44,688 nt of DNA from a phage, in the sequence record PX880098.1; one strand, written 5' to 3'. Below the pieces are notes generated by a model. It was not told the DNA's origin, ran no database searches, and saw nothing but the letters and a program-made list of their open reading frames with translations. Shown here piece by piece: positions 3,121 through 37,950 of the stretch (position 1 is its first letter; each line of letters opens with the position of its first letter). Both the position numbers and the translations under genes were made by a program.

Positions 3121-3149
3121 ATAGTACCCTATTATATTGGTGTCTGCAA
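3121..3149 (-). promoter_or_regulatory. sigma70-like promoter, family B (TTGCAG-N17-TACTAT)
   Basis: Minus-strand reading TTGCAGacaccaatataatagggTACTATTCA; 17-nt spacer; contains ATAG-N4-CTAT; upstream of the 71-aa gene. Confidence 0.55.
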
Positions 3150-3193
3150 ATATTATTTTTATGCGTTACACTGGTGATACTACAGGAGGGCCT

Positions 3194-4237
3194 ATGAGCT
3201 TACTTACATCCCTAATCAGCCACCAGATATGGCTGCAACGCACCGCATCCGGTGAAGTGAAAGACCTTGCGCCGTTTCTTCAGGAAATGCGGGACGAAAT
3301 CAAACAGCAGGTGCTGTTATTCGGTGACGACGGGCGAAGCACCGCGCGGTTGAATAAATTGTTACGCGACCTTGAAGAAGCACTGACCGGGATTACGGAC
3401 GACTGGCAGACAAAGCTGGCAGAAGACCTCAAAGAACTGGCAGCGTACGAGGCCGAGTGGAACGTAAAGACACTGACAGCCAACGTTAACGCGGAATTTG
3501 TTACGCCTACTGCCGAGCAAGTGTGGGCCGCCGCCGAGTTTCAACCTCTGTCACTAAGTGACAAGCCTGTCGATTTCACCAAGCTGATGTCTGGTTGGGG
3601 TGAAACGGAGGTGGCGCGCCTGGTAACTGGCGTTAAGATGGGCTTTGTTCAAGGCAAGACTACACGGCAGATTGTAAAAGAAGTAGTCGGTAAAGGCGGG
3701 CTGGCTGACGTATCGGAGAAATACGCAGCTACGGTAATCCGCACCGCGCTGTCTCACGTGTCCAATGAAGCACGCAACGAGACGTACCGCCAGAACGACG
3801 ACATCATCGAGAAGTATGAGTGGGTGTCAACGCTGGACAGCCGTACCAGTACGATTTGCAGAGCCCGGGACGGAATGACGTGGGAAATTGGTAAAGGGCC
3901 AATGCCCCCAGCCCATCCGAATTGTCGGTCGTGCACGGCCCCGGTAATCAGTTCAGAGTTCGACTTCCTCGATAAAGGTGCAAAACGTGCGGCTAAGGGT
4001 GCGGACGGGGGTACTCAGGTTAGCGCAGACACAACCTATTACGAGTTCCTGAAACAACAACCGGCATGGTTTCAGGATGAAGCACTCGGCCAGGTTCGGG
4101 GTAAGATTTTCCGCAACAGCGGTATATCACCGGAAGAGTTTCGCGTAATATCTGTAGATGGTTTCGGGAATCCGCTCACGCTTAAGCAGATGGCGGAACT
4201 CGATAAACGTGTTGCTGATTATCTGAAAGGGGAATAA
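3194..4237 (+). CDS. head morphogenesis protein (Mu gpF / SPP1 gp7-like)
   Basis: Follows portal; C-terminal region with PMPPAHPNCRSC resembles Mu F-like minor head proteins; start chosen at ATG 3194 after GGAGGG; listed ORF begins at TTG 3137 inside the promoter. Confidence 0.6.
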   Translation: MSLLTSLISHQIWLQRTASGEVKDLAPFLQEMRDEIKQQVLLFGDDGRSTARLNKLLRDLEEALTGITDDWQTKLAEDLKELAAYEAEWNVKTLTANVNAEFVTPTAEQVWAAAEFQPLSLSDKPVDFTKLMSGWGETEVARLVTGVKMGFVQGKTTRQIVKEVVGKGGLADVSEKYAATVIRTALSHVSNEARNETYRQNDDIIEKYEWVSTLDSRTSTICRARDGMTWEIGKGPMPPAHPNCRSCTAPVISSEFDFLDKGAKRAAKGADGGTQVSADTTYYEFLKQQPAWFQDEALGQVRGKIFRNSGISPEEFRVISVDGFGNPLTLKQMAELDKRVADYLKGE

Positions 4238-4698
4238 TGATGGGCTTTTTCAAAGTAACTGATGTGCCGTCGCGTCGTGTAGTCCAGTATGCCCGTGTGT
4301 CTGGCTCTAGAGAGAACGTGGTGTTTATTGAGGATGAAAGTGTACTAGGTACGCCAGTAGACGATATGCCGTTTGCGGACAAGACAGGTATCGCTTTACC
4401 CGCGGCAGGTATGCTTTACGAGATTCCGTATCTGGCGGACGCTGGTGACGTGTATTTCTCTGTGCAACCACAGGACGTTGAACTGGCAGACGGCAGCGCA
4501 ACTATCACTGTCGAGGTTAAGGCTGGTAAAGTGCCGTACGCTCTGACCTGGTACAAAGACGGTAGGGAAGTGGTTAATGCACCAGAAGAGGCTTTGTCTC
4601 TGACAGTTAATGCTGTTGGCGAATACTTCGTTAAAGTTACTGATGCCGATGGTGTAGAGGCTGTCAGCAAAGCGGCGAAGGTTACTAAGCCAGAATAA
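4237..4698 (+). CDS. Ig-like domain structural protein (possible decoration protein)
   Basis: 153-aa ORF; TAATG overlap with upstream gene; Ig-like signature YALTWYKDGREV...GEYFVKVTD. Confidence 0.5.
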   Translation: MMGFFKVTDVPSRRVVQYARVSGSRENVVFIEDESVLGTPVDDMPFADKTGIALPAAGMLYEIPYLADAGDVYFSVQPQDVELADGSATITVEVKAGKVPYALTWYKDGREVVNAPEEALSLTVNAVGEYFVKVTDADGVEAVSKAAKVTKPE

Positions 4699-4702
4699 AC
4701 TG

Positions 4703-4725
4703 AAGCCCCGAAAGGGGCTTTTTAG
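4703..4725 (+). terminator. rho-independent terminator
   Basis: AGCCCC-GAAA-GGGGCT hairpin followed by TTTTT, right after the stop at 4698. Confidence 0.7.
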
Positions 4726-4775
4726 TGTCTGTGATTATTCCATTTATTCCACCGAATTGTAAATGTTGGAATAAA

Positions 4776-4787
4776 CTATTCGAATAG
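4776..4787. promoter_or_regulatory. perfect 12-bp palindrome CTATTCGAATAG abutting a -35 element
   Basis: Self-complementary 12-mer immediately upstream of TTGACT at 4788; shares ATAG/CTAT half-sites with the promoter-embedded palindromes. Confidence 0.5.
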
Positions 4788-4816
4788 TTGACTTTTCACT
4801 AAAAATGTGCTAAGCT
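4788..4816 (+). promoter_or_regulatory. sigma70-like promoter (TTGACT-N17-TAAGCT)
   Basis: -35 TTGACT, 17-nt spacer, -10 TAAGCT; upstream of the spanin genes; preceded by ATGTTGGAATAA motif also found at about 5545. Confidence 0.45.
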
Positions 4817-4996
4817 CCACCTGAGCTTGTGAAGTATGAACAAGCGACCGCGGCGCGGGCAGGTAACGGAGCGGGACGTAAGTCCTGAGTGTAGTTACGC
4901 TGACGCGTTCGGAAGGGCCATACTCTATTGCTTGTGTAAAAAGGAACGGGTTTACTGAGATTACGCCGTTTCTATGTTTAAATGATAAGGACTAGC

Positions 4997-5023
4997 GCCC
5001 CGCTTTATGGCGGGGCTTTACTT
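4997..5023 (+). terminator. hairpin with T run upstream of the spanin start (terminator or attenuator)
   Basis: GCCCCGC-TTTATG-GCGGGGC followed by TTTACTT; lies between the 4788 promoter and the ATG at 5042. Confidence 0.45.
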
Positions 5024-5041
5024 ATCGAGAAAGGGGGAAAC

Positions 5042-5428
5042 ATGAATCTTAAAGCAACTGTCGTAGCGGGGGCATGTTTCATCATCCTGCTATACGCACA
5101 CGGCTACTATCAGTACCGCGTAGGCTGGACCGAAGGCCGGGCGAATCTCGTTTCGCAGCAACAGCAGAAAGCACAGGCTGAGTTAGCGAAGAAAACACAA
5201 CGGCAGCAGCAGGACGAATCAAAGGCCGCTGGTGCTGACAACGAAGGCAAGACGAAATCAGAGGTGATTACCCGTGAAGTCGTTAAGTACATTAAAACGC
5301 CTGGCCGCAGCGTGTGCACTTTCGACGATGCTCGCGTCCTGCTCAAGTCCCGCGCCGTCGCCAACGCCAATTCCATCCCCGGATACGACGATGATGCAGC
5401 CGCCGTGCAAACTGGCAGCGCCAAGTAG
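5042..5428 (+). CDS. i-spanin (Rz-like)
   Basis: N-terminal TM helix (ATVVAGACFIILLYAHGYY), Q/K/A/E-rich coiled-coil periplasmic region; SD AAGGGGGAA before ATG 5042; contains an overlapped lipoprotein ORF. Confidence 0.6.
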   Translation: MNLKATVVAGACFIILLYAHGYYQYRVGWTEGRANLVSQQQQKAQAELAKKTQRQQQDESKAAGADNEGKTKSEVITREVVKYIKTPGRSVCTFDDARVLLKSRAVANANSIPGYDDDAAAVQTGSAK

Positions 5429-5537
5429 CGACGCCGATGAGGATTTGGCTATCGACGTTCAGAACGCCGAATGCGTACGGCAATTGCGCCTGAAAGTGTT
5501 CATGTTGCAGGATTACGTGAGGAATATTCTGGAATAG
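5274..5537 (+). CDS. o-spanin (Rz1-like lipoprotein), overlapped with the i-spanin gene
   Basis: Signal peptide with lipobox LASC, proline-rich mature part SSPAPSPTPIPSP; starts in another frame inside the Rz-like gene and extends beyond its stop. Confidence 0.55.
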   Translation: MKSLSTLKRLAAACALSTMLASCSSPAPSPTPIPSPDTTMMQPPCKLAAPSSDADEDLAIDVQNAECVRQLRLKVFMLQDYVRNILE

Positions 5538-5619
5538 TTGCCTTGCATGTTGGAATAATTTATTCTTGACATGTAAATCCGGGTGGCCCGGGTTCCAACG
5601 TCCAGGGGACATACTGACT

Positions 5620-6324
5620 ATGAATCGTTTTTTACGTTATCCGTTCCAGGAAGAAGCTGGAGCAGAAGATAAATCTGGTGGCGGTGATGCGCCGAAAATG
5701 TTCACCGCTGAAGAAGTTCAGGCGCTGATTGAGAAAGAAGTCGCCGGGCTTAAGGCCAATCAGGAAGCATTGCTGGCGGAGAAGAAAGAAGCCGCCCGTA
5801 AAGCAAAAGAGGCTGAAGAAGAGCGGCAGCGCGCACACCAGGAGGCGTTAAAAGCCGCTGGTAAGATGGACGAGTTCGAAAAGACGATTCGTAGCCAGTA
5901 TGACCCGGTGTTAGCCGAGAAAGATGGTCGCATCTCCAGAATGGCAGAGCGCATCCTCGGCAGCGAACGTAAAGCGGTGCTAGGCTCTTTCGCGGGCGAC
6001 TTTATTACCCCGGAAGCAGTAGACATTCTTGCTCCGTTCGTTAAGACTGAGTTCGAAGGCGATGACGTGGTTACTAAGTTTGTCGGTGCAGATGGCAATG
6101 TAATCACGACTGACCCGGAACAGTTCCGCAAATACCTGCGTGAACACAAAGCGTTTTCGCATTTGATTAAAGCAAATGCAGCTTCCGGCGGCGGGGCTTC
6201 CGGCAGCAAAGGCGGCGGGGCCGCACCAGCGTTTAAAGACATGAGTGAAGCGGAGCGCATTGCTCTGTACGAATCGAACCCTGCCGAATTTGAACGGCAA
6301 CTTAAAGCCCTGAGGAAAAAATAA
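5620..6324 (+). CDS. scaffolding protein (putative)
   Basis: Directly upstream of the major capsid gene; highly charged alpha-helical sequence (KEAARKAKEAEEERQRAHQEALKAAG); start at ATG 5620 after AGGGGA. Confidence 0.6.
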   Translation: MNRFLRYPFQEEAGAEDKSGGGDAPKMFTAEEVQALIEKEVAGLKANQEALLAEKKEAARKAKEAEEERQRAHQEALKAAGKMDEFEKTIRSQYDPVLAEKDGRISRMAERILGSERKAVLGSFAGDFITPEAVDILAPFVKTEFEGDDVVTKFVGADGNVITTDPEQFRKYLREHKAFSHLIKANAASGGGASGSKGGGAAPAFKDMSEAERIALYESNPAEFERQLKALRKK

Positions 6325-7373: not shown

Positions 7374-7388
7374 GGTTAAGCTATAATC

Positions 7389-7417
7389 GAGAGGGACTTC
7401 GGTCCCTCTTTTCATTT
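7389..7417 (+). terminator. rho-independent terminator after the capsid gene
   Basis: AGAGGGAC-TTCG-GTCCCTCT hairpin followed by TTTCATTT. Confidence 0.7.
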
Positions 7418-7432
7418 ACTAAGAGGTAAATT

Positions 7433-7732
7433 ATGGCTAAGACCGGAAAAGGCTTACCGCGCAGCCTTCAGAACGTTGACTTTAGCGACCTAGATATCCC
7501 CGTCACGCCTGCTACTACCAGCGTAGTTGGTGGGGTTAAAAAGTCAGCTACTGTAGCTGCTCCCGCGGCCATTACTGCCGCTGCCGGAGTTCAGGCCGCC
7601 ACAGACCCGACTAAGGCAGAGTTTGATGCGCTTGTAGCGGAGTATAATAAACTCCGAACCGATGTTACCGCGCTGCGCACTACCGTAGCGAACCTGTTAA
7701 CCGCGCTTAAAAACGCAGGAACTGTAAGCTAA
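7433..7732 (+). CDS. hypothetical structural protein (99 aa, Ala/Thr-rich)
   Basis: ORF with SD AAGAGG upstream; in head gene block; no recognisable motif. Confidence 0.5.
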   Translation: MAKTGKGLPRSLQNVDFSDLDIPVTPATTSVVGGVKKSATVAAPAAITAAAGVQAATDPTKAEFDALVAEYNKLRTDVTALRTTVANLLTALKNAGTVS

Positions 7733-7744
7733 AGGAGCTTAAAA

Positions 7745-8095: not shown

Positions 8096-8131
8096 TACAA
8101 CGGCCCCTCGGGGCCGTAATAAGGAAAGGTC

Positions 8132-8311: not shown

Positions 8312-8314
8312 TTT

Positions 8315-14016: not shown

Positions 14017-14208
14017 TCACTTCTCTTTGACATTCGAGTTGCACGCCCAGATTAAAATAAATATCCATGGCAGCAGAACCCAGCCAAGAAACATATTAGC
14101 CATGAATATCGCCAGTTTCGCTTTATGACCCCGCATATGGGCCACTAAAAACGGGATAAAATAAACTAAAACGATAATGATTAAGAAGAACATAGTAATG
14201 CCGGTCAT
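14017..14208 (-). CDS. superinfection immunity (Imm-like) small membrane protein
   Basis: 63 aa, two TM segments; YFIPFLVAHMRGHKAKLAIFMANMFLGWVLLPWIFILIWA matches the Imm superinfection-exclusion family pattern; AT-rich. Confidence 0.6.
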   Translation of the reverse strand: MTGITMFFLIIIVLVYFIPFLVAHMRGHKAKLAIFMANMFLGWVLLPWIFILIWACNSNVKEK

Positions 14209-14249
14209 GCTGTAGCTCCTGTTTGAGTTAACATTGTTAGTGTAAGTGA

Positions 14250-14278
14250 ATAGTATCCTATTATGTTGGGGAGTGCAA
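14250..14278 (-). promoter_or_regulatory. sigma70-like promoter, family B (TTGCAC-N17-TACTAT)
   Basis: Minus-strand reading TTGCACtccccaacataataggaTACTATTCAC, almost identical to the plus-strand copy at 36092; drives the Imm/MPE/HAD/kinase operon. Confidence 0.6.
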
Positions 14279-23890: not shown

Positions 23891-26352
23891 TTCTTACCTC
23901 GTCTCTTCATGTAATTAAGCAATTCTTCCTGGACAGATTTCTTCTCGTCAGTGCGCGCGGCGACAACCTCATCCAGCGTGTCTTTAGCAACGATGTGGTA
24001 TAGGAACACAGGGCGCTCGTGACCCGCCTGTTTCTGGCGTACTGGGCCTATACGCTCAACAACCTGCAAATAGTGCTCAAGGTTCCAGCCTTGTGAAATG
24101 AATGCCAGATGATGCCCTCCGTCCTGTAAATTCAAACCATGGCCCGCTGACGCAGGATGCACGCATAATATTTCGATTTCCCCGCGGTTCCACGCTTCCA
24201 TCTGCTTATTACCTTTAACGCCTTTGGCAAACGCCTGCGCCTGCGGGAATCGCTTAAGGATGCGCTCCAGTTCGTGCTTGAACTGATAGGCCACTAGTAA
24301 CGGCGCACCCTGTAGCTCCTCAACAATGGACTCCAGAGCATCCAGTTTCGTGTCGTGTACTTTCTCCCAGTCTTTCGTTGCTTCGCCATCTGGCCCTGAT
24401 ACGTATACGGCACCGGATGCAATCTGCAGACACTTAGAGGTCTTCGCCGCAGCGTTAGCCGCTTCAACTTCTCCGCTCTCCAGTTCAGCAAATAACTTCT
24501 CCTCCATATCGATGTACGCCTGACGCGCTTTCTTCGGCAGGTCAATTTCAACCGGTACAATTATTGGCGCTTCACAACCAAACCACTCGGCAGCGTCAAT
24601 CGTGAGACTAATGTCCTTCATCTTCTGGTGAATTTCGTTATCCGCACCTGGGCGGGCGTGGTATTCGCGCGCCATAGCCGATTTGCCTTTCTGTACCGAG
24701 TTAAACCAGCGGTCGGTGAATGCTGTGTATGATGACCCCAGGCGCTCGCCAGCGTCGATAAACCAGTTCTGGCCCCACAAGTCCTTGAGGCCGTTTGGTG
24801 ACGGTGTACCGGTCAGATTGATGAAACGTTTAACATTACCGAACGCCACTTTGCTTAGTGCCTTTGCTCGCTTGCTTCCGCCAGAACGGCTGCGGAATGA
24901 TTTCAACTTCGTGCTCTCATCGGCAACAATAACCGTAAAAGGCCAGTCGTCTTTGCCGTAGTAGTCAATCAGCCACTCGATTACCTCATAGTTCGTGCAC
25001 ACCACGTTAGCGTCGGACTCCAGCGCCGCGATGCGGCGCTTCTCTGAACCGGTCGCATCTACGACGCGCAGACAAGGGAAACCCCACTTAGTTTGTTCTG
25101 CCGGCCATGTGCCGGACGCAACACGCAACGGCGCAAGGATTAACACACGGTCGTCATCATTAAGTTGGCCGTTGCGGAACAGCCGATTGAGAACCCACAT
25201 CGTCGAGCTTGTGTTGTGCGTTACGGTGAAGTCGCCTAATAGAAACCGGTGGTCACCGTCGATAGTGAAGCCGTAATAATCATCTACGCCGACCGGGGTT
25301 ATAGATTCTATTCCAACGTTAAGTACGTTTTTATTAATATTACGCTTCGGTAAATTCTGGTGGCGGCCACGCACGAAAGGCACCTCAGAAAAATCGCCTG
25401 ATACCGATACGCGGAAGTAATCCCCCCAAACATCAGTGTTTGCGCAACGCTTACGAGTTTTCTTCTTGTAAGCGGCGAAACCAAGAGAACGGCATAGATA
25501 GCAAAAATCATCAGCGAGTCGCTCGCTTACCGAAATCCAGTCAAAACCTGCTTTAGACAAATCACAATAACCGTCGCTATCCAGAAGCCCCGCCAGCAAT
25601 TCTAAACGTTGCTGCCGGTCGCCGCATTTGTAATTATGCGGTATATGCTTATGGTTCAAGACCCCCGCCGACCTCAGCGCGTGCGTAAGCCCGTGCTTCT
25701 TATTGCCAGTATTGCCGTAAGATATACTCCATGTAAGTCCTTCTTTTCGTATTTGCATCCCATTACGCGCTGCGTACGATTCAAGATACTCCCTTATTTC
25801 CTTTTCGTTTTCCCCAGATGTTATGGCTCCCGACGATGAGGTGCCATCACCAAGCCACAGCCCCATAAGGTACGGGGGCAATAAAGCATCGTCCTGATCT
25901 TTCCTCGGGAAATCGACAGGTACTCGCCAACCCTTAAGATACCCATTAGGTCCGGTTACATATTTCGGCAACTTAAGCCAGTCGCGGACGCTTATGTCGA
26001 AAACGGTATTATCCGGCCATGAACCCTTTGCTATCCCTGTAGTAGTTCGCAGTGATAATATATGGCTTTCGTTTACCGTATACGACTCTCCTTTTCGCGG
26101 TTTAACCTCGTACATCATCTCCCGGCCTCTACCGAGAGACAGTACATTTCTAGGCGTTGAATCTGGCCCCATAAGCACGTCACCGACGATGACGTCTTCT
26201 ACTTTCTTGGTCGTACCGTCAAACATAATAACTTCAGTCCCGCGTTTCAGGCACTTGCCGCTACCCATACTTGCCCAGATATTACAGCGCGGGTTCCGCA
26301 GCATGAACGAGGTCATGAGCTTTTGATAAGGCCTTCTAGTGAATTTACTCAT
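23887..26352 (-). CDS. SNF2-family helicase interrupted by an intein
   Basis: Walker A split as MGSGK|intein|TSS; DExx-like box VIVADESTKLK; NLTGTPSPNGLKDLW and GHGLNLQDGG helicase motifs. Confidence 0.75.
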   Translation of the reverse strand: MSKFTRRPYQKLMTSFMLRNPRCNIWASMGSGKCLKRGTEVIMFDGTTKKVEDVIVGDVLMGPDSTPRNVLSLGRGREMMYEVKPRKGESYTVNESHILSLRTTTGIAKGSWPDNTVFDISVRDWLKLPKYVTGPNGYLKGWRVPVDFPRKDQDDALLPPYLMGLWLGDGTSSSGAITSGENEKEIREYLESYAARNGMQIRKEGLTWSISYGNTGNKKHGLTHALRSAGVLNHKHIPHNYKCGDRQQRLELLAGLLDSDGYCDLSKAGFDWISVSERLADDFCYLCRSLGFAAYKKKTRKRCANTDVWGDYFRVSVSGDFSEVPFVRGRHQNLPKRNINKNVLNVGIESITPVGVDDYYGFTIDGDHRFLLGDFTVTHNTSSTMWVLNRLFRNGQLNDDDRVLILAPLRVASGTWPAEQTKWGFPCLRVVDATGSEKRRIAALESDANVVCTNYEVIEWLIDYYGKDDWPFTVIVADESTKLKSFRSRSGGSKRAKALSKVAFGNVKRFINLTGTPSPNGLKDLWGQNWFIDAGERLGSSYTAFTDRWFNSVQKGKSAMAREYHARPGADNEIHQKMKDISLTIDAAEWFGCEAPIIVPVEIDLPKKARQAYIDMEEKLFAELESGEVEAANAAAKTSKCLQIASGAVYVSGPDGEATKDWEKVHDTKLDALESIVEELQGAPLLVAYQFKHELERILKRFPQAQAFAKGVKGNKQMEAWNRGEIEILCVHPASAGHGLNLQDGGHHLAFISQGWNLEHYLQVVERIGPVRQKQAGHERPVFLYHIVAKDTLDEVVAARTDEKKSVQEELLNYMKRRGKK
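25213..26253 (-). mobile_element. intein with LAGLIDADG homing endonuclease domain (347 aa)
   Basis: Begins with Cys after GSGK, ends THN followed by Thr; two LAGLIDADG-like motifs LMGLWLGDGTS and LAGLLDSDGY; C-terminal block FLLGDFTVTHN. Confidence 0.75.
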
Positions 26353-26540
26353 TTCAGCACCAGTACCAGTTCTTTACGCCCGAACGCCGTAACGTTACCG
26401 GTTACATCTTCGATAACCAGTTTACCGTTCGACCCGACGAACACCGTATCAACGGCAACAGGACGACGTGTCTTAACGTTGAAAATCATGTCGCCAGGTA
26501 CGATGTCACGTGCTGGTTTGCGGTCGTATTCGTGTTTCAT
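26349..26540 (-). CDS. hypothetical protein (63 aa)
   Basis: First ORF downstream of promoter 26574-26602; ATGA-coupled to the helicase gene. Confidence 0.5.
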   Translation of the reverse strand: MKHEYDRKPARDIVPGDMIFNVKTRRPVAVDTVFVGSNGKLVIEDVTGNVTAFGRKELVLVLK

Positions 26541-26570: not shown

Positions 26571-26858
26571 CTAACTATAATAGTATGCTATTAGGGTGTC
26601 AACCTGTTTTATAGAGCCAACCACAAAAACATTCGCACCACGTTTACGCATCCGCTCGTGTTCACGTAACTGGTGCGGGTCTGGCTTCGTGTTTTCGTCT
26701 TTCTTCACCTCGACGAACCAGACTATGCCGCCAGGGAGAATTACCAGCAGGTCAGGAGCGCCGGAACGTCCTTCGTAGGAGAGCTTACGAACGAGGCCAC
26801 CCAGGGCCTCGAATCGCCCCTTCGCATATTTCTGTACGCGCCCCTCAGGCGTACTCAT
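26571..26858 (-). CDS. VRR-NUC domain nuclease
   Basis: PD-(D/E)xK signature GAPDLLVILPGGIVWFVEVKK; SD GAGAGGGG upstream. Confidence 0.55.
   Translation of the reverse strand: MSTPEGRVQKYAKGRFEALGGLVRKLSYEGRSGAPDLLVILPGGIVWFVEVKKDENTKPDPHQLREHERMRKRGANVFVVGSIKQVDTLIAYYYS
26574..26602 (-). promoter_or_regulatory. sigma70-like promoter, family A (TTGACA-N17-TATAGT)
   Basis: Minus-strand reading TTGACAccctaatagcatactatTATAGT with AT-rich upstream region; contains ATAG-N4-CTAT. Confidence 0.6.
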
Positions 26859-29986: not shown

Positions 29987-30041
29987 TTCTCGATTCCTCA
30001 GTTTTCAGTTTACTCCGGGAGCTGCCCGGCCAGTGATTAGA

Positions 30042-30070
30042 ACTATAATAGCTAACTATTCAGGTGTCAA
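30042..30070 (-). promoter_or_regulatory. sigma70-like promoter, family A (TTGACA-N17-TATAGT)
   Basis: Minus-strand reading TTGACAcctgaatagttagctatTATAGT; near-identical to the copy at 32491. Confidence 0.6.
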
Positions 30071-32490: not shown

Positions 32491-32520
32491 ACTATAATAG
32501 CTAACTATTCATGTTGTCAA
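32491..32520 (-). promoter_or_regulatory. sigma70-like promoter, family A (TTGACA-N18-TATAGT)
   Basis: Minus-strand reading TTGACAacatgaatagttagctatTATAGT; divergent from the HTH gene. Confidence 0.6.
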
Positions 32521-32584
32521 TGGGCTTTTCTAAAATAATTAATATGGTACTATTCACATATCAACTGACTAAGGAGTAATTGAC

Positions 32585-32800
32585 ATGCAACCATCTGAGC
32601 TAGGTATCCGTGTAGAACAACGCCGCAAAGAACTCGGCATCTCCCAGCGCCGTCTGGCTGTCCTGGCCGGCGTTTCCCAGGGCGCGATTAACCAACTGGC
32701 TCTCGGGGTAACTCAGGACGTCCGCCCGGCAACTCTGTTTAAACTGGCGGAAGTGCTGCAAGTAGACGCCAAGTGGCTGGCGTTCGGTGAAGGGGCTTAA
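32585..32800 (+). CDS. XRE-family HTH transcriptional regulator (Cro-like)
   Basis: 71 aa; HTH ISQRRLAVLAGVSQGAINQLALG; only plus-strand gene in the replication block, divergent from a family A promoter. Confidence 0.7.
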   Translation: MQPSELGIRVEQRRKELGISQRRLAVLAGVSQGAINQLALGVTQDVRPATLFKLAEVLQVDAKWLAFGEGA

Positions 32801-32816
32801 CGCCCCTTTCTTTTTG
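32790..32816 (+). terminator. intrinsic terminator after HTH gene
   Basis: GGGGC-TTAAC-GCCCC followed by TTTCTTTTTG. Confidence 0.6.
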
Positions 32817-32817
32817 C

Positions 32818-35100
32818 CTATTCCAAATCCTCCTCTGTCACCACCAGCATTTCATTAGGTTCGTATATTGTCTTCGGCCTTAGTCTATCCCCTATTCTTT
32901 CAGGTATACGATACGTTCGCGGCACTACTTCGCCGTTAGCGTCACAGCCTAGCATTAGTTCGCCATCTTTCAGCATTTTATCAAGATGGGTGTTAGTCAC
33001 AGAAAAGTCACCGGAACGGGCAACTATCTGCTGCTGAGTAAAACCGCGACCTGTGTCATCTGACTGTTGCAGGTCTTCCAGTGCCGAAAGTATTGACTCC
33101 TTTCTCCCTTCATCCCTGCCGCGTTTAACTTCTTCCTTTACTTTTTCTTTACCTTTATCGGATAGCCCTTCTTCCCGCTCCTTCTCCTCGTCAGTTTTGA
33201 ACGGCTCGAAGCCCCACGGCATCAATACAAGCGCTTTGTGCGGTTCAGGCAGGTCGAGGTTTACGATTGTGCCGTATTCCTCTGTGCTACCCCGGAACTC
33301 AACCGCGCGGTACTCTTTCGGCGGCGGGGCTTCGCGGAACTGTACGGACTCAAGCACCATGCCAACCGTTTTCTGCTGAGGCCCGTGCTTAAATTTTGAG
33401 TGGTATACGTTTATCTGACGGTCGGTAGCGCGTTCGATTGTCAGCTCTACGTCAACGCCCGCGTACAGCGCCCCACTGCCACGGGCTTTCTTTCCACCCT
33501 TCGGCGTATGGTGGACGACGCCTACCGCGGCTTTAGTCGCGTCGCGTACTTCTTTCAGGATGGCGATGACTTTACCCATGCCGATTGCCGTTGATGAACT
33601 GTTCTCGTCGAACTTATCAATCGTCAGGGCCAGGGTCTGGTTAAGGGTGTCGAACGCGACCATGCCAATTGGCTCGTCGCCAGCAGTTTCTCGCATCAGC
33701 TTAATCAGGCTTTTCAGTTTTCCGACTTCACCCATATCGATGACGTGTACATAATCTTTACCTTCCACGCCATATTTAGCCGCGAGCGCGTCAATACGTG
33801 TGCGGGTGGCGGCACCGCCCTCCCCGTCGATATAGAAATGGTGGCAACGCTGGGTGTCCGCCCCTGCAAACCTGTATCCGGCGGCGCTGAGGTACATCAT
33901 CCCCAGCGTATAAAACGATTTGTACGTACCGGATTCCCCAACAATATCCCAGATGCAATCTGACGGCATGTACCCTTCAACGACGAAATCAGCCTTTACC
34001 GGTTCCGGCAACTCGCCCTCCTCTGAGTCTTCGTCATCTTCCAGGTCGTCAAGGCTGCATGAAACGGACTCCCGCGCACCCCAACCTATAGCCTCTGCAA
34101 CCTCACTGAACGGAAGCCCGGTCGCGTCGCACGCGTATTTCCACACCTCTTTCGGTGACATGCCTTCGGTCGCCGTAATGTCGGTGTCGTGAATCATGGT
34201 TACGTTCGGCGCTTCGTACCCCTCGCGCGGGAAGCACAGCAGGAAGTCATCTGGCCTCGGCGTCGGGTCGCTGTATTTTTCTGCGTGTTCCGGCGTAGCT
34301 GGCATCTTAAGGCCGCGCGGCGTCATGATACCGCCGTATTCAAACGCCAGCGCCTCAAACGCATCGGTAAACGCTGTGCGCAGTTCTTCCGGTATCTGGT
34401 AATCCGACGCGCTGCTAACGTCGACGGCTGGGATGCCTTCCAGTAACTCGTCCGGGTCAATCAGGTCGTTGCGACGAGACCAGATAACCTGAGAGCCGAC
34501 CGGCGGCAGGTACATCGGCTGCGACAGAGTGAACCCGCTGCGGTCAGCACCCATGCCTTTAAAGAAGTGCTCCAGCAATCCGTGACGAACGCGGATGATG
34601 TCACCGCCTTCAACCGGACGACCCAGAGGCATGACTACGCGAAAGCGCGGTGACTCATCGGTATGTGATGCCGTGGTGTAGAGACACATAGCCCGACGGC
34701 TGCGCTTAACCAGACGCACTGCTTCCTGGTACTCTTCCGGTGTTGCACTGTCGAAGTCCAGATACGCCAGCGACGATTTGCTTACAGACGCGTCACAGCG
34801 ATAAAAGAAACCTTTGCGCGCTTGCTTAAAGTCACCGGTTTCCGGGTCTTTTACGGTGCTGTGCGTTGAGTCGCACGCGGCAGTGATATAGCCAGGCGCT
34901 GTCTTCGGGTTAACCCCGTCTCGAATGGCATCGAGCGGCTGTATTAACTCTTTCAGGTCGTCCAGTGTTGCCGTGTGCGTGGTTCTGACGTTTATATCCT
35001 TTTTCTCAGCCCGCGCGTTGCGACGTGACCACGAGTAGGATAAAATTACATCGGACATGTTGTATATTCCTTCAGCAAGTAATTTGGCCTCGGCGTTCAC
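32818..35100 (-). CDS. primase-helicase (AEP-type primase domain fused to P-loop NTPase)
   Basis: AEP-like DxD motif AYLDFDSATPEEY and SH-TDE motif in N-terminal half; Walker A GESGTYKS in C-terminal half; C-terminus TEEDLE. Confidence 0.6.
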   Translation of the reverse strand: MNAEAKLLAEGIYNMSDVILSYSWSRRNARAEKKDINVRTTHTATLDDLKELIQPLDAIRDGVNPKTAPGYITAACDSTHSTVKDPETGDFKQARKGFFYRCDASVSKSSLAYLDFDSATPEEYQEAVRLVKRSRRAMCLYTTASHTDESPRFRVVMPLGRPVEGGDIIRVRHGLLEHFFKGMGADRSGFTLSQPMYLPPVGSQVIWSRRNDLIDPDELLEGIPAVDVSSASDYQIPEELRTAFTDAFEALAFEYGGIMTPRGLKMPATPEHAEKYSDPTPRPDDFLLCFPREGYEAPNVTMIHDTDITATEGMSPKEVWKYACDATGLPFSEVAEAIGWGARESVSCSLDDLEDDEDSEEGELPEPVKADFVVEGYMPSDCIWDIVGESGTYKSFYTLGMMYLSAAGYRFAGADTQRCHHFYIDGEGGAATRTRIDALAAKYGVEGKDYVHVIDMGEVGKLKSLIKLMRETAGDEPIGMVAFDTLNQTLALTIDKFDENSSSTAIGMGKVIAILKEVRDATKAAVGVVHHTPKGGKKARGSGALYAGVDVELTIERATDRQINVYHSKFKHGPQQKTVGMVLESVQFREAPPPKEYRAVEFRGSTEEYGTIVNLDLPEPHKALVLMPWGFEPFKTDEEKEREEGLSDKGKEKVKEEVKRGRDEGRKESILSALEDLQQSDDTGRGFTQQQIVARSGDFSVTNTHLDKMLKDGELMLGCDANGEVVPRTYRIPERIGDRLRPKTIYEPNEMLVVTEEDLE

Positions 35101-35117
35101 CGCGTCGGGGCTTTCTT

Positions 35118-35351
35118 TTATTCCAGGTCTTCTAAAGTAGCGGTCATTCCGCGAACTTCAGCAACAGCGCTATATTTCCCGCCCACATTTTTCACGACAC
35201 CGGATTTAACCAGTACTCGTAACGACGCTTCAATAATGGCGGAACTATAGTACTTAAAATAACTACGGCGCAAGTCGATAACACTGCACGACCCTTTTTT
35301 ACGTGTTAACGAAACTACAGCTGTGAATACCCGTGACTGAAACTCGGTCAT
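35118..35351 (-). CDS. hypothetical small protein (77 aa), possible winged-helix
   Basis: ATGA-coupled to upstream HTH ORF; C-terminus TATLEDLE. Confidence 0.5.
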   Translation of the reverse strand: MTEFQSRVFTAVVSLTRKKGSCSVIDLRRSYFKYYSSAIIEASLRVLVKSGVVKNVGGKYSAVAEVRGMTATLEDLE

Positions 35352-35518
35352 TTCACGTTCTCCTTAATCCATGCTTCCACTTTCTCCGGGTCGAACGTGC
35401 CTGGCTGCCGGCGGCCCATAATGCGAATACAACAATCCGGGAACTTCCCACTCTTTAACCAGTTATTGAGCGTGCGGCGAGTAACCCCGATACGCTCAGC
35501 TACTTCATTCTGTGTCAT
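35348..35518 (-). CDS. AlpA/Xis-like HTH DNA-binding protein (56 aa), absent from ORF track
   Basis: SD AAGGAG before ATG 35518; HTH VAERIGVTRRTLNNWLKSGKFP; stop overlaps next start (ATGA). Confidence 0.6.
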   Translation of the reverse strand: MTQNEVAERIGVTRRTLNNWLKSGKFPDCCIRIMGRRQPGTFDPEKVEAWIKENVK

Positions 35519-35657
35519 CTTTAATCTCCTTAATTATTTCACGCGCTAACGCTGTAGCTGTGCCGTATTTATTGGGGCAGTATCTGCTCTCATTATGCCC
35601 ACTAAACCACGCTTCTATCAGCAACTCTTTCAACTGTTCTTCTGTCAAAGTAACCAT
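35505..35657 (-). CDS. small protein (50 aa), absent from ORF track
   Basis: First ORF after minus-strand promoter 35690-35718; SD GAGGG; overlaps downstream gene start. Confidence 0.4.
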   Translation of the reverse strand: MVTLTEEQLKELLIEAWFSGHNESRYCPNKYGTATALAREIIKEIKDDTE

Positions 35658-35689
35658 TCTCAAACCCTCATTATCAGTTAACGAAACCG

Positions 35690-35718
35690 AGTATACATTG
35701 CGAATAATGGGAAATCAA
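35690..35718 (-). promoter_or_regulatory. sigma70-like promoter (TTGATT-N17-TATACT) of the leftward operon
   Basis: Minus-strand reading TTGATTtcccattattcgcaatgTATACT; back-to-back with the plus-strand promoter at 35734. Confidence 0.5.
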
Positions 35719-35733
35719 ACACAATCGCACCTA

Positions 35734-35762
35734 TTGACATTAAGAAAATCTTCGTTTAAGGT
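35734..35762 (+). promoter_or_regulatory. sigma70-like promoter (TTGACA-N17-TAAGGT), rightward
   Basis: Consensus -35 TTGACA with 17-nt spacer and TAAGGT; no ORF for about 380 nt downstream; terminator at 35999. Confidence 0.45.
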
Positions 35763-35998
35763 GCTTCTATATCTTAGTTACTTTGATTCCTGTTCACCTT
35801 GTAAAACCCGCCGAAAACGAGCGCCCAACGCGAAGTGTTAGGCGGCAGTTTACTGAACACGAGAATTATTGTAACTTTCCGTCCTTAGTATCTCCGGTTG
35901 CCATGGGCAAGCTCTATTCTCATCGGCAGCATATCTCTTAAGTATCTGATTTTCTTAATGTGCCGTAGATTCGCAACCGTAAAAATGTAACGATTATT

Positions 35999-36026
35999 GG
36001 GCAGGCTTAAGGCCTGCCCTTTAGTT
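35999..36026 (+). terminator. intrinsic terminator in divergent control region
   Basis: GGGCAGGC-TTAAG-GCCTGCCC followed by TTTAGTT. Confidence 0.6.
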
Positions 36027-36091
36027 ACCAAGTAATAAGAATAATGGCACAACAGTTCCTAAATAATCACAACGGCAACGCAATTAATCTC

Positions 36092-36120
36092 TTGCACGCC
36101 CCAACATAATAGGATACTAT
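36092..36120 (+). promoter_or_regulatory. sigma70-like promoter, family B (TTGCAC-N17-TACTAT)
   Basis: TTGCACgccccaacataataggaTACTATTCAC; contains ATAG-N4-CTAT; upstream of the PAPS-reductase-like gene. Confidence 0.6.
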
Positions 36121-36154
36121 TCACTTATAGTGACGAGACAGAGGAGTGATGGTC

Positions 36155-36916
36155 ATGAGCAAGCCGGTAATAGCGGTCTGGTTTTCGTGTGGTGCTGCCA
36201 GTGCGGTAGCTGCAAAAATAACTATCGAGAAATACAGTCATACTCATGATGTGCGTGTGCTTAACAACCCGGTGGCAGAGGAGGACGCTGACAACATACG
36301 TTTTCTTCATGATGTTGAAAATTGGATAGGTGTGAAAATTGAATCAGTAATTAACCCTATGTTCCCGAACGCCAGCGCTGTAGAGGTCTGGGACCATCAG
36401 CGTTATATGTCCGGCATTGCTGGAGCACCATGTACGAAGGCACTTAAGAAGCTCGCCAGAAAGCATTGGGAGCAATCAAATCGCTGTGACCATATCGTGC
36501 TTGGTTTTACTGCTGATGAGGCGCATCGCGCAGATAATTTCGTCAAAAACGAAAGGCGCAGTTTGATTCCAGTTCTGATTGAAGCCGGATACACAAAAGG
36601 AGACTGCTTTCGAATCCTTCTGGAGAACGGCATTCGACTTCCTCGTATTTATCACTTGGGTTACCCAAACGCGAACTGCATAGGATGTGTAAAAGCCACA
36701 TCTCCAACCTACTGGAATCTTGTCCGTCGCGTTCATCCTGAGGTATTTGTCCAACGTGCAGAGCAATCACGACGATTGGGTGTTCGTCTTGTTAGATATT
36801 CCGGAGAGCGCATCTATCTCGACGAGTTGCCGCCAGACGCAGTTGGCCGCCCAATAAAAAGTCTTGATTTTGAATGTGGGATTTTCTGTAAACCAGCAGA
36901 TGAGGATGAAGAATGA
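36155..36916 (+). CDS. PAPS reductase-like / PP-loop ATP pyrophosphatase superfamily protein with C-terminal Cys pairs
   Basis: N-terminal VWFSCGAAS at the position of a PP-loop SGGxDS; C-terminal CIGC and CGIFC; start ATG 36155 chosen 8 nt after GAGGAG. Confidence 0.5.
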   Translation: MSKPVIAVWFSCGAASAVAAKITIEKYSHTHDVRVLNNPVAEEDADNIRFLHDVENWIGVKIESVINPMFPNASAVEVWDHQRYMSGIAGAPCTKALKKLARKHWEQSNRCDHIVLGFTADEAHRADNFVKNERRSLIPVLIEAGYTKGDCFRILLENGIRLPRIYHLGYPNANCIGCVKATSPTYWNLVRRVHPEVFVQRAEQSRRLGVRLVRYSGERIYLDELPPDAVGRPIKSLDFECGIFCKPADEDEE

Positions 36917-37254
36917 AAACTGATATCACCGAACTGACTCAGAGAGAGCTTTATGCAAAAGTTGAGAAGCAAGCTCATTCCCTTCGAGGAAATCCATTTG
37001 AATATATGGTAATAACCGGGATGTGTCCTGTGAACGTTGTCGAATTACATGCTAAGAAAATACAATCCTTACTAACAGATCAAATTGGTTATAAAGAGGA
37101 GATTGCAGCACTCCGCCAGCGCATCGCTGAGCTGGAGTCACGCACCGTGACTTCCTATTGCGATACCGACAACCACCAGTTCGAAAGACTCAGCGACCAC
37201 AAACATCACTTCATCAACGGCACTTGCGTAGAGTGCCTGGCTAAAAGTGAATAA
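36913..37254 (+). CDS. hypothetical protein (113 aa) with C-terminal Cys/His cluster
   Basis: ATGA-coupled; coiled-coil middle; CDTDNHQF...HKHHFINGTCVEC suggests metal binding. Confidence 0.5.
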   Translation: MKTDITELTQRELYAKVEKQAHSLRGNPFEYMVITGMCPVNVVELHAKKIQSLLTDQIGYKEEIAALRQRIAELESRTVTSYCDTDNHQFERLSDHKHHFINGTCVECLAKSE

Positions 37255-37439
37255 CTACCTGTTCATATTAATTATAAGTGCGCTCTATGTGGCGCACGCT
37301 TTAGTGGAGACGCATCTATGACCAGACACCAACGACGTCGCTACACACTAACAAAGTTCAGTTTCAACACGGATTTTAAAGAACGAACGGCATCGAATCA
37401 TGATGCCCGTGCCTACGACTCTGAGGGAGGTTGCCGTTA

Positions 37440-37631
37440 ATGAAAATTCGTATAACTGATGTTGATTATGTGCTGCCGCCGGATTATGGCGACCATTCAC
37501 TGCGTTACTTTGGCATCTCCGTCGGGGATGATTTCGATGTTACGTCAAGTAATGATTTTGGCCACTTCGTCGAACACTGCGGTGAGGAACTGTACGTGCG
37601 TAACCGTGAATGTGAAGTTCTGGAGGACTAA
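37440..37631 (+). CDS. hypothetical protein (63 aa)
   Basis: ATG 37440 preceded by GAGGGAGG; listed ORF starts at upstream TTG. Confidence 0.5.
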   Translation: MKIRITDVDYVLPPDYGDHSLRYFGISVGDDFDVTSSNDFGHFVEHCGEELYVRNRECEVLED

Positions 37632-37634
37632 GTT

Positions 37635-37784
37635 ATGAGAGAAGCATTCGAACGGTGGGCCGTAGTCGAGGGTCTGCCGGTTAACAAGGGTTCGAAGAAA
37701 GAGTACCTGAACGTTAAGACGCGTCTCGCGTGGCGGGCGTGGAAAGCTGGTGCGCAATTTCGTGCTGGTGTAACAGGTCAATAG
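37635..37784 (+). CDS. small basic protein (49 aa), absent from ORF track
   Basis: SD GGAGGA before ATG 37635; 49 uninterrupted codons; followed by terminator. Confidence 0.5.
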   Translation: MREAFERWAVVEGLPVNKGSKKEYLNVKTRLAWRAWKAGAQFRAGVTGQ

Positions 37785-37807
37785 GTTACTATTTTGCTTT
37801 GTGTCTT

Positions 37808-37837
37808 ACGCTGCTACACAGCAGCGTATCATTTTTC
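37808..37837 (+). terminator. rho-independent terminator
   Basis: ACGCTGCT-ACAC-AGCAGCGT followed by ATCATTTTTC. Confidence 0.65.
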
Positions 37838-37921
37838 TCATTTTTGTTCTATTTCACCAAACGCAACAATCGAAGCGACTATTGCAGGAGATGCAACAAT
37901 ACAGGCACCAATAAAATTTAC

Positions 37922-37950
37922 TTGCACGCTAAGATAGAATAGGCTACTAT
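37922..37950 (+). promoter_or_regulatory. sigma70-like promoter, family B (TTGCAC-N17-TACTAT)
   Basis: TTGCACgctaagatagaataggcTACTATTCAT; contains ATAG-N4-CTAT; followed by conserved leader. Confidence 0.6.

Follow-up and report, generated by a model that had tools for sequence, protein, structure and literature searches.

The window, the whole stretch of 44,688 nucleotides analysed here (record PX880098.1), is a complete Kagunavirus-like genome (Guernseyvirinae) of a virulent Kagunavirus-type coliphage. It carries eight exact copies of the inverted repeat ATAG-N4-CTAT, several near-matches, and genes for two small HTH proteins, one XRE-like and one AlpA-like (Table 1). The promoters that contain the dyad drive early genes, replication genes and morons, the latter being extra reverse-strand genes inside the late region.

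Table 1. Dyads, promoters and candidate regulator genes in the window (rc, reverse complement)
Feature	Position (strand)	Sequence	Promoter elements	Genes and context
Dyad, P3121 (-), family B	3121..3132	ATAGTACCCTAT	left half (rc TACTAT) is the -10; -35 TTGCAG 3144-3149	drives moron 2877-3092; on + strand, in spacer of TCGATA(3110)-N17-TATATT(3133-3138), ahead of head-morphogenesis gene
Dyad, P14250 (-), family B	14250..14261	ATAGTATCCTAT	-10 rc TACTAT 14250-14255; -35 TTGCAC 14273-14278	drives superinfection-immunity gene 14017-14208; overlapped by + strand TAGTAT (14251-14256), TTAACA at 14228
Dyad, P26580 (-), family A	26580..26591	ATAGTATGCTAT	in 17-bp spacer; -35 26597-26602; -10 TATAGT 26574-26579	inside nuclease gene 3' end; drives 26349-26540 and helicase/methylase gene
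Dyad, P30048 (-), family A	30048..30059	ATAGCTAACTAT	in spacer; -35 30065-30070; -10 30042-30047	drives SSB, DNA polymerase and nuclease genes
Dyad O1, P32497 (-), family A	32497..32508	ATAGCTAACTAT	in 18-bp spacer; -35 32515-32520; -10 32491-32496	divergent from XRE-like gene
Degenerate dyad O2, 1 mismatch	32542..32553 (+)	ATATGGTACTAT	right half is -10 TACTAT 32548-32553; -35 poor	XRE-like gene's own promoter
Dyad, family B (+)	36109..36120 (+)	ATAGGATACTAT	right half in -10 TACTAT 36115-36120; -35 TTGCAC 36092-36097	drives 36146-36916 (PAPS-reductase-like) and downstream genes
Dyad, promoter-less	37781..37792 (+)	ATAGGTTACTAT	no -35	
Dyad, family B (+)	37939..37950 (+)	ATAGGCTACTAT	right half in -10 TACTAT 37945-37950; -35 TTGCAC 37922-37927	drives gene from 37981 and downstream genes
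1-mismatch dyad, P41200	41196..41207 (+)	CTAGTGGACTAT	wrapped around -35 TGGACT 41200-41205 (TTGACT in relatives); -10 TATACT 41223-41228	conserved promoter
1-mismatch dyad, P4788	4784..4795 (+)	ATAGTTGACTTT	around -35 TTGACT 4788-4793; -10 TAAGCT 4811-4816	promoter-like
P_L, without dyad	35690..35718 (-)		TTGATT-N17-TATACT	leftward immediate-early promoter
XRE-like gene	32585..32800 (+)			71 aa, HTH_3 (E=1e-12)
AlpA-like gene	35348..35518 (-)			56 aa, HTH_17 (MerR-like winged HTH), clade-specific

Dyad counts and promoter architecture

Dyad counts were compared with 100 dinucleotide-preserving shuffles of the window, in which 0.43 copies of ATAG-N4-CTAT were expected (maximum 2) and none of the 100 shuffles reached eight; the chance expectation of roughly one copy in the preliminary description was thus slightly generous. 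The seven coordinates listed there are each an exact match, and the copy at 37781-37792 had been missed. When every 4-mer dyad with a gap of 0-12 was enumerated without bias (3,328 tests), this dyad ranked first (p=1.7e-8). Every copy in the window extends to the 14-bp form AATAG-N4-CTATT, of which 12 sites were found with at most one mismatch, versus 1.27 expected.

The dyad enters promoters in two architectures, as previously described. In family B (TTGCAC/G-N17-TACTAT) the right half-site lies within the -10, and in family A (TTGACA-N17/18-TATAGT) the dyad fills the spacer. Family B promoters are near-identical to one another over about 38 bp, and their -10 is invariably TACTAT, in which the non-consensus C needed by the half-site is kept. 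Family A promoters are near-consensus. The distance from the -35 to the dyad start varies among promoters (5-6, 8 or 11-12 bp), and within promoters the dyad is invariably next to a -10 or overlapping one, in both orientations.

The promoter-less copy at 37781 shares bases with the stop codon (CAA TAG) that ends a small + strand gene (37636-37785), and a terminator (37807-37828) follows it after 15 nt. It is a stand-alone site or else a scar left by a family B cassette. The pairing of 37781 with 37939, about 158 bp apart, recurs in L007 and in several IMG/VR loci. P41200, a probable late promoter, follows a terminator (41150-41178) and heads an operon of small, terminase and structural genes; Jerseyvirus has ATAG-TTGA-CTAG at this position. 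The related outward-facing palindrome CTATTCGAATAG reported at 4776 did not stand out from chance, as CTAT-N4-ATAG occurs once and 34 of the 100 shuffles reach that number. Overlapping it is AATAG-TTGA-CTTTT (4783-4796), a one-mismatch dyad around a -35 (TTGACT), and P41200 is arranged alike.

Conservation of the dyad in related phages

In 55 Kagunavirus and Jerseyvirus sequences (1.26 Mb), 257 copies of the dyad were counted at orthologous promoters, versus about 12 copies expected in 1.26 Mb at the shuffle rate of the window. The half-sites are invariant across the clade and the central 4 bp take 32 forms. In an alignment that took the XRE start, not the motif, as its anchor, O1 had no half-site changes and six central tetramers among 33 distinct Kagunavirus sequences, and anchored alignments of P26580 and P30048 likewise had fixed half-sites and a varying centre. 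O2 was always ATAT..CTAT, all 33 distinct Kagunavirus sequences having an identical mismatch, and O1 of Jerseyvirus was always ATCG..CTAT. One Jerseyvirus dyad is common to two overlapping divergent promoters. In this phage and its Salmonella relatives the dyad occupies the core of almost all strong early promoters. No other feature is shared by both promoter families (A and B), the register-8 promoters of Jerseyvirus and the stand-alone sites.

No copies were found in St162, the Klebsiella phage VLCpiS11a or a Dhillonvirus. The SSB promoter retains TTGACA, the -10 and the leader hairpin in both St162, where the left half of the dyad has been lost, and VLCpiS11a, where there is no dyad. Because orthologous promoters persist without it in these two phages, the dyad is a separable add-on and not promoter core; judged by these sequences, it is dispensable for promoter function.

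Candidate readers and alternative explanations

We tentatively read AATAG-N4-CTATT as the operator of a phage-encoded HTH protein, with the XRE-like protein as first candidate, that would repress by occluding RNA polymerase, and hold this reading with slightly less than even confidence. The preliminary description had proposed an operator for a phage or host regulator; the operator is the best-supported reading, given the conservation, the variable register, the use of both orientations and the absence from related orthologous promoters, and the host regulator found no support. The two HTH proteins named there are the only two viable candidates, the AlpA-like protein being a close second that computation does not separate from the first.

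The XRE-like protein has phage 434 Cro as its best PDB match (E=5e-7; both are 71 aa), and O1 and O2 flank its gene upstream. An XRE-type reader is further supported by analogy, because the Edwardsiella phage eiAU-183 has both a promoter-embedded dyad of its own (GTTAA-N6-TTAAC, 5 copies, p=3e-8), undescribed as far as we have seen, and an XRE homologue; in a scan of ten of its small early proteins, no other DNA binder was recognisable. That phage also resembles the present one in a related replication module, a promoter-leader cassette (TTGCAA-N17-TATAGT...GGAG-ATG) and a lineage-specific dyad at about five early/moron promoters; it differs in its half-sites and spacing, in a dyad that overlaps the start site as well as the 3' end of the -10, and in having no AlpA-like gene. 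Counting against the XRE-like protein, St162 and the Klebsiella phage have homologues of it (39% identity) but no global dyad, the recognition helix differs between the genera (SQGAINQ vs SQSLITH) where the half-sites are identical, and in Jerseyvirus degeneracy is greatest at the two XRE-proximal sites.

In a somewhat unlikely but substantial alternative, the same operator and occlusion would be served by the AlpA-like protein, made first from the dyad-free P_L, and the XRE-like protein would be only a local regulator with another target. P_L is conserved in both genera and drives the AlpA-like gene, which is the first downstream, orf77 and the primase-helicase gene. The AlpA-like protein and the dyad occur together in every Kagunavirus and Jerseyvirus sequence sampled and are both absent from 4 of 4 outgroups, three of which encode XRE homologues; all 443 phage records with the AlpA-like protein are of Kagunavirus/Jerseyvirus type, and no distant homologues were found among 5.8 billion proteins. 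Like the half-sites, its HTH and wing hardly change from one genus to the other (87% identity). In the transcriptome of K1B4, the only one for a Kagunavirus and too coarse to reveal early shut-off, an HTH-domain gene that we infer to be the AlpA-like one is among only four 'early' genes. The AlphaFold model (pLDDT 77) best matches MerR-like proteins consisting of the DNA-binding domain only, with RacA, which binds a 14-bp inverted repeat, at the top. The fold-search E-values are weak (>= 0.01), however, no dimerisation element is visible, and small HTH_17/excisionase-like proteins such as Xis, BldC and RdfS, also among the fold matches, typically bind direct repeats head-to-tail. Within Kagunavirus, moreover, the putative recognition helix has an R-to-Q change with the dyad unchanged.

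It is improbable that no extra factor is involved and that the motif is the shared core of duplicated or recombining sigma-70 promoter cassettes, as detected by PHIRE, with ATAG and CTAT appearing palindromic as pieces of -10-like hexamers (TATAGT, TACTAT, TATTAT). The right half is in every case part of a -10 or next to one, ATAG is contained in TATAGT, family B promoters share their 38-bp near-identity, published annotations call these 20-mers promoters, and the promoter-less copies could be recombination scars of such cassettes, which would speak against a separate element. Part of the conservation of the right half-site is indeed owed to RNA polymerase, because this half is a -10-like hexamer in most registers. 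In family A, however, the dyad lies wholly in the spacer, unread by sigma-70, and its halves are invariant while the centre and remaining spacer drift; the dyad alone unites the different classes of site, it occurs in both polarities relative to transcription, and it is missing from the orthologous promoters of St162 and the Klebsiella phage.

Two further possibilities were considered. Promoter-internal elements serve as loading sites for lambda Q and Pseudomonas AlpA, and the dyad could similarly recruit a positive factor, either a Q/AlpA-type antiterminator that carries polymerase past the numerous intrinsic terminators in the rightward and late operons, or a marker of phage promoters after host shut-off. 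The genome is rich in + strand terminators between promoters and late genes, and weak dyads surround the -35 of P41200, the probable late promoter. This is nevertheless very unlikely, since a stereospecific polymerase contact would not tolerate the varying register to -35/-10, near-consensus family A promoters need no activation, and the AlpA-like protein starts right at the HTH and has no counterpart of the N-terminal segment with which Pseudomonas AlpA enters the RNA exit channel. The least probable explanation is that an E. coli/Salmonella DNA-binding protein reads the dyad and ties early transcription to host physiology. Phages infecting two host genera, whose transcription factors are mostly shared, have identical half-sites, but we know of no enterobacterial factor with an AATAG-N4-CTATT consensus, the Salmonella and Klebsiella relatives St162 and VLCpiS11a infect similar hosts without having the dyad, and its distribution tracks phage gene content.

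Relation to known systems and proposed mode of action

The recurring motif has already been published. The 'phage promoters' predicted by PHIRE in the Kagunaviruses fBC-Eco01 (PMC9825357) and Golestan (PMC7203180) are the same 20-mers, seven per genome with the consensus tgAATAGTa-ccTATTat-T, and include the XRE-proximal pair and a stand-alone site after the portal gene. Both papers treat them as promoters and one ascribes them to a phage RNA polymerase (PMC9825357, PMC7203180); no RNA polymerase gene is annotated in the relatives. Dyad symmetry, variable register and an operator reading are absent from these papers, and only the dyad/operator reading is new here.

The arrangement resembles, as far as sequence can tell, that of the phage 434 Cro/repressor and its lambda and P22 equivalents, with a small HTH_3 protein and a 14-bp dyad conserved outside and variable in the centre, putative operators overlapping the core promoter, and a divergent promoter region in which two sites neighbour the regulator gene. 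The operators of 434 are 14-bp dyads whose outer bases are conserved and whose central bases vary. Unlike 434, the present phage is virulent, its annotated relatives have neither a CI partner nor an integrase, its half-site sequence differs, its single sites are scattered over at least 7-10 promoters genome-wide in place of tripartite OR/OL clusters, and a non-Cro (AlpA-like) protein is equally viable as putative reader. Aca (anti-CRISPR-associated) proteins are small HTH autorepressors that damp very strong early promoters through inverted repeats overlapping -35/-10, also in virulent phages, and a candidate small HTH protein with dyads on strong early promoters is found here as well. Aca genes, however, lie within the operon they repress, beside acr genes, whereas the present sites extend over the whole genome and neither candidate regulator is linked to recognisable anti-defence genes. 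Many dispersed sites, some outside promoters (37781; the post-portal site in relatives), recall mycobacteriophage L5, in which a single repressor, gp71, serves dispersed operator/'stoperator' sites. The L5 'stoperators' are asymmetric 13-mers that block elongation orientation-dependently in a temperate phage, whereas the present sites are symmetric and nearly all on core promoters.

In the operator reading, a small phage HTH protein would bind the dyad as a symmetric pair and, once accumulated, would shut the dyad promoters by occluding host RNA polymerase. Occlusion is suggested because the dyad always abuts or overlaps the promoter -10, and the variable geometry fits it, as activation would call for contacts of fixed geometry. 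The conserved one-mismatch sites, at the -10 of the XRE-like gene and the -35 of P41200 and P4788, may provide graded, weaker control.

Occurrence and conservation of the dyad

The inverted repeat ATAG-N4-CTAT, referred to here as the dyad, was found eight times in the window (see the table), against a mean of 0.43 copies and a maximum of 2 in 100 dinucleotide-preserving shuffles. The preliminary description had listed seven of these sites; all seven are present, far above the shuffled controls, but the copy at 37781 had been omitted. Among all 4-mer dyads with gaps of 0-12 (3,328 tests), ATAG-N4-CTAT ranked first (p=1.7e-8). All eight copies extend to the 14-bp form AATAG-N4-CTATT, two bases further out are partly conserved, and allowing up to one mismatch in the 14-mer gave 12 sites versus 1.27 expected. 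The palindrome CTATTCGAATAG at 4776, previously regarded as a related outward-facing element, did not hold up, as the single copy of CTAT-N4-ATAG is what chance predicts.

The region 23000-44688 of the 44.7-kb window matched Kagunavirus coliphages at ~88-90% identity over ~70% of the query and Salmonella phages of the genus Jerseyvirus more distantly, and the gene order of the window is that of the annotated relatives Bas73 and Ivi, among whose 80-81 annotated genes there is no RNA polymerase, CI repressor or integrase. The dyad occurs in 7-8 copies in each of seven Kagunavirus genomes and in 4-5 copies in each of five Jerseyvirus genomes, and has zero copies in the one Dhillonvirus genome compared. 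In total, 257 copies were found in 55 sequences of the clade (1.26 Mb), including 42 further IMG/VR loci. In alignments anchored on the downstream proteins, and hence independent of the motif, the half-sites are fixed, and drift is seen in the four central bases and in the remaining spacer; 32 forms of the central tetramer were found between invariant half-sites. The dyad is a real, strongly non-random and deeply conserved element.

Anchoring on the start codon of the gene for the XRE-like protein, a 71-aa HTH_3 protein, yielded 46 distinct upstream regions (33 Kagunavirus and 13 Jerseyvirus), which contain two sites, O1 and O2. No half-site change was found in O1 of the 33 Kagunavirus sequences despite six different centres, and the same single mismatch (ATCG) was present in O1 of all 13 Jerseyvirus sequences. 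O2, a weaker site, always reads ATAT...CTAT in Kagunavirus. The fixation of these imperfections suggests tuned affinities rather than decay.

In relatives without the moron at the portal/head-morphogenesis junction, a dyad, cttATAGTATGCTATtaac, lies right behind the portal terminator without a -35 element and with TATAGT formed by its left half. The head-morphogenesis gene of Bas73 is annotated to start at a codon inside this dyad, probably a mis-call.

Promoters and leaders associated with the dyad

Seven of the eight sites lie on core promoters, and all promoter-borne dyads adjoin or overlap the -10 element. The two promoter families proposed in the preliminary description were recovered, with the dyad in the spacer at three sites (family A) and the right half-site forming the 3' part of the -10 at four (family B). 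A Shine-Dalgarno sequence and an ATG follow 25-35 nt past each dyad promoter, and transcripts should not include the dyads, since these precede the predicted start sites. The downstream genes include a PAPS-reductase-like gene and other early genes, the replication genes for SSB, DNA polymerase, exonuclease and helicase, and two morons, one of which encodes a superinfection-immunity protein. The eighth copy, at 37781, has no -35 and lies on the stop codon of a 49-codon gene, 15 nt upstream of a terminator. This gene falls below the 50-aa ORF cut-off, and its stop codon is part of the dyad.

Reading of the sequence did not yield an opposite-strand sigma-70 promoter at any family-A site: 17 bp upstream of the plus-strand TATAAT at 32491-32496 there is no usable -35. 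Plus-strand promoter candidates are present in the divergent regions at 3121 and 14250, which are possible exceptions; at 14250, the -10 hexamers of opposite strands overlap (TAGTAT/TACTAT).

Three of four one-mismatch sites are also on promoters. P41200 follows the endolysin terminator, heads the operon of small, terminase and structural genes, and is conserved in Kagunavirus and Jerseyvirus, with a one-mismatch dyad over the -35 that differs by genus; the late (terminase/structural) transcription unit probably begins here. No dyad is present in P_L, the conserved leftward immediate-early promoter (35690-35718, minus strand; TTGATT-N17-TATACT). The segment at the promoter-like P4788, between the Hoc-like and spanin/scaffold genes, is a candidate phage small RNA: it is 97-98% identical in seven Kagunaviruses versus ~90% genome-wide and has a folding z of -2.9. 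It had no blastn match in the Jerseyvirus genomes and no Rfam family, none being found anywhere in the window.

Two leader elements were observed as well. The motif aACGAGA(N0-4)GGAG lies just 5' of the start codons in most dyad-promoter cassettes, is found too in Jerseyvirus and the Klebsiella phage, and may be an extended ribosome-binding site or an element of translational control. The 5' UTR of the SSB gene contains a hairpin that is kept in Kagunavirus, Jerseyvirus, St162 and the Klebsiella phage, and that may serve as a translational operator through which SSB regulates itself.

Positions of dyads, promoters and associated features (window coordinates unless a relative is named)
Feature	Position	Strand or direction	Details
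Structural operon	1-23354	rightward	broken by short leftward gene clusters (reverse-strand 'morons')
Replication block	23.5-35.7 kb	leftward	
Early/lysis block	36.1-41.1 kb	rightward	then small genes and terminase
Dyads of TTGCAC/G-N17-TACTAT promoters	36109, 37939	rightward	family B
Dyads of TTGCAC/G-N17-TACTAT promoters	3121, 14250	leftward	family B
Dyads filling spacer of near-consensus TTGACA-N17/18-TATAGT	26580, 30048, 32497 (O1)	leftward	family A; replication block
Dyad without -35	37781		
49-codon ORF	37636-37785	+	MREAFERWAVVEGLPVNKGSKKEYLNVKTRLAWRAWKAGAQFRAGVTGQ; starts 5 nt past stop of previous gene
O2	32542-32553		on -10 of XRE gene's own promoter; -35 poor
One-mismatch dyads	P41200, P4788		wrapped around TTGACT -35 hexamers
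P41200 region	41150-41265	+	terminator, TTGACT/TGGACT-N17-TATATT/TATACT, leader, ATG at 41263
P4788 segment	4788-5026	+	TTGACT-N17-TAAGCT; strong intrinsic terminator 4997-5016, ~200 nt on
aACGAGA(N0-4)GGAG leaders	P36109, P37939, P3121, P32497, P41200		e.g. 36132-36146, 37962-37975
SSB leader hairpin	~30013-30031	-	ggCCGGGcagctCCCGGag
Post-portal dyad	L001 3358, L002 8699, L005 2806, L006 2817, L007 42311, L011 2791		
Jerseyvirus divergent pair	L003 5190-5240 and equivalents in L008, L009, L015	+	TTGACG-N8-dyad, towards tail chaperone gene
Jerseyvirus divergent pair	same	-	TTGCAT-N8-dyad, towards immunity-like gene
Perfect 12-bp palindrome	L012 (Klebsiella phage VLCpiS11a) 7938-7949		ATACTATAGTAT; just upstream of XRE homologue; one base per half-site from Kagunavirus dyad
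GTTAA-N6-TTAAC	L013 (Edwardsiella phage eiAU-183) 13209, 14854, 27758, 28101, 42907		TTGCAA/TTGACG-N17 cassettes
Putative target DNA of (XRE)2 or (AlpA-like)2			AATAGGATACTATT

Candidate readers of the dyad

Three small candidate DNA binders are encoded nearby: the XRE-like protein (32585-32800), the AlpA-like protein (56 aa, HTH_17, 35348-35518) and orf77 (35118-35351). The last was excluded because it is missing from many loci that keep the full set of dyads. The XRE-like protein matched PF01381 (HTH_3, E=1.2e-12), and its best PDB match, over the full length, was 434 Cro (1zug, E=4.9e-7). In the 14-bp dyads that serve as operators of 434, the outer bases are conserved and the centre varies, a geometry that the present dyad shares; the XRE-like gene also has both O1 and O2 upstream. 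These points favour the XRE-like protein as the reader. The protein is encoded in every dyad-bearing genome. Three observations speak against it: homologues at 39% identity are also encoded in St162 and the Klebsiella phage, which have no global dyad; its recognition helix is not the same in Kagunavirus and Jerseyvirus, although their half-sites are identical; and the two sites next to the XRE gene are the most degenerate ones of Jerseyvirus.

In favour of the AlpA-like protein, its distribution matches that of the dyad exactly in the genomes sampled, and no distant homologue was found in IMG/VR or in a set of 5.8 billion proteins. Its HTH and wing are almost invariant, and it is the first product from the dyad-free P_L. 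The AlphaFold model (pLDDT 77) resembles MerR-like domain-only proteins, including RacA, BldC and excisionases; RacA binds inverted repeats, and BldC and excisionases bind direct repeats.

No natural knock-out of either gene was found among the 42 IMG/VR loci, and no significant replacement dyad was found in the XRE-positive, AlpA-negative St162 and Klebsiella phage. In the latter (VLCpiS11a), ATAC-N4-GTAT occurs three times genome-wide, which is not significant, with one copy beside the XRE gene. The XRE-like protein is placed slightly ahead of the AlpA-like protein as the candidate reader, in what is nearly a coin toss. To our knowledge, the dyad has no convincing match to the consensus of ArgR, FNR, TrpR, NarL, IHF, LexA or IscR.

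The dyad as a putative operator

Five lines of sequence evidence indicate that the dyad is a module separate from the promoter core. Its first base lies 5-6, 8 or 11-12 bp past the -35 hexamer, and the -10 varies with this register (TATAGT adjoining the dyad, TATTAT with a 3-base overlap, TACTAT with a 4-base overlap). Its internal polarity is mild (ATAATAG...CTATTCA) and is inverted in family A relative to family B. In Jerseyvirus, a single dyad is common to two overlapping divergent promoters. The orthologous SSB promoter keeps its TTGACA, -10 and leader hairpin both in St162, which has lost the left half-site, and in VLCpiS11a, which lacks the dyad entirely, so this promoter should work without it. 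Lastly, the -10 of family B is TACTAT without exception, which keeps a non-consensus C demanded by the half-site.

In its behaviour the dyad resembles an operator superimposed on sigma-70 promoters, at which a small phage HTH protein most likely represses transcription; repression is predicted mainly because occlusion tolerates variable placement within the polymerase footprint and stereospecific activation does not. A plain sigma-70 core, consisting of -35, extended -10 and -10, would leave unexplained the spacer half-sites of family A, which are invariant amid otherwise drifting sequence, and the St162 and Klebsiella orthologues have no dyad. The recurrence of the motif is already published: seven 'phage RNAP promoters' with the consensus tgAATAGTa-ccTATTat-T were reported for fBC-Eco01 (PMC9825357), and seven PHIRE 20-mers, among them O1, O2 and the post-portal site, for Golestan (PMC7203180); neither paper mentions that the motif is dyad-symmetric, that sigma-70 hexamers are present or that a phage polymerase is absent. 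A promoter for a phage RNA polymerase, as labelled in PMC9825357, disagrees with the annotated genes of Bas73 and Ivi, which include no such enzyme, and the fixed orientation and distance to the transcribed gene expected of it are contradicted by dyads of both polarities in at least three registers relative to the sigma-70 hexamers.

The spacers of 17-18 bp also differ from the over-long 19-20 bp spacer of sites bound by MerR-type activators. L5-type stoperators are asymmetric, orientation-dependent and mainly within transcription units; the dyads are symmetric and mostly on core promoters. As for antitermination of the Q/AlpA type, the dyads are inside promoters with terminators downstream, and the HTH of the AlpA-like protein is at its very start, without the N-terminal segment expected of an antiterminator in the RNA exit channel.

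The closest functional model for the putative operator is the 434/lambda Cro-operator system. As in Cro/CI-type systems, there is a small phage-encoded HTH_3 protein, a dyad of ~14-18 bp that is conserved in its outer bases and variable in its centre, and sites that overlap core promoter elements and flank the XRE gene. It differs in the virulent lifestyle, the uncertain reader, the lack of a CI partner or integrase in the annotated relatives, and single, dispersed sites instead of a tripartite OR/OL. One tiny HTH protein would read a single 14-bp dyad that occupies four or more registers and ten or more promoters: the -10 elements of the promoters for early, replication and moron genes would be covered by high-affinity sites, and conserved one-mismatch sites, deliberately weakened, would lie at the promoter of the regulator itself and around the -35 in the promoters of the late operon and the small RNA, giving a 'Cro without CI' global timer. 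The orphan AlpA-like protein would be the alternative reader. That either protein times the whole programme of Kagunavirus and Jerseyvirus, siphoviruses of a strictly virulent lineage, through this dyad is a tentative proposal, and rather unlikely as it stands.

A similar promoter-operator system, to all appearance not yet described, seems to exist in the related Edwardsiella phage eiAU-183, in which five copies of GTTAA-N6-TTAAC (p=3e-8) mark about five homologous promoter cassettes and overlap the start site as well as the 3' end of the TATAGT -10. Of ten small early proteins scanned in this phage, only the XRE homologue was recognisable as a DNA binder.

Promoter-overlapping operators and Cro-like repressors are textbook matter, and no established principle is challenged by the dyad. 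In the literature searched, neither an operator nor the binding of a regulator is described for Guernseyvirinae, and the published temporal transcriptome of a Kagunavirus (5-120 min, peak-time classes) is too coarse to reveal shut-off of the dyad promoters. Kagunavirus and Jerseyvirus, with hundreds of isolates, are among the phages of E. coli and Salmonella most often isolated for therapy and food biocontrol, and their transcription programme has hardly been studied. Should the dyad prove to be an operator, it would explain the PHIRE 'phage promoters' in genomes without a phage RNA polymerase and provide a compact repressor/operator pair with graded strong sigma-70 promoters for engineering these phages; if the AlpA-like protein reads it, this would be a new kind of palindrome-reading MerR-like mini-regulator. 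An operator would also offer an entry, via two small proteins and a 14-bp site, to the temporal switch of the whole subfamily.
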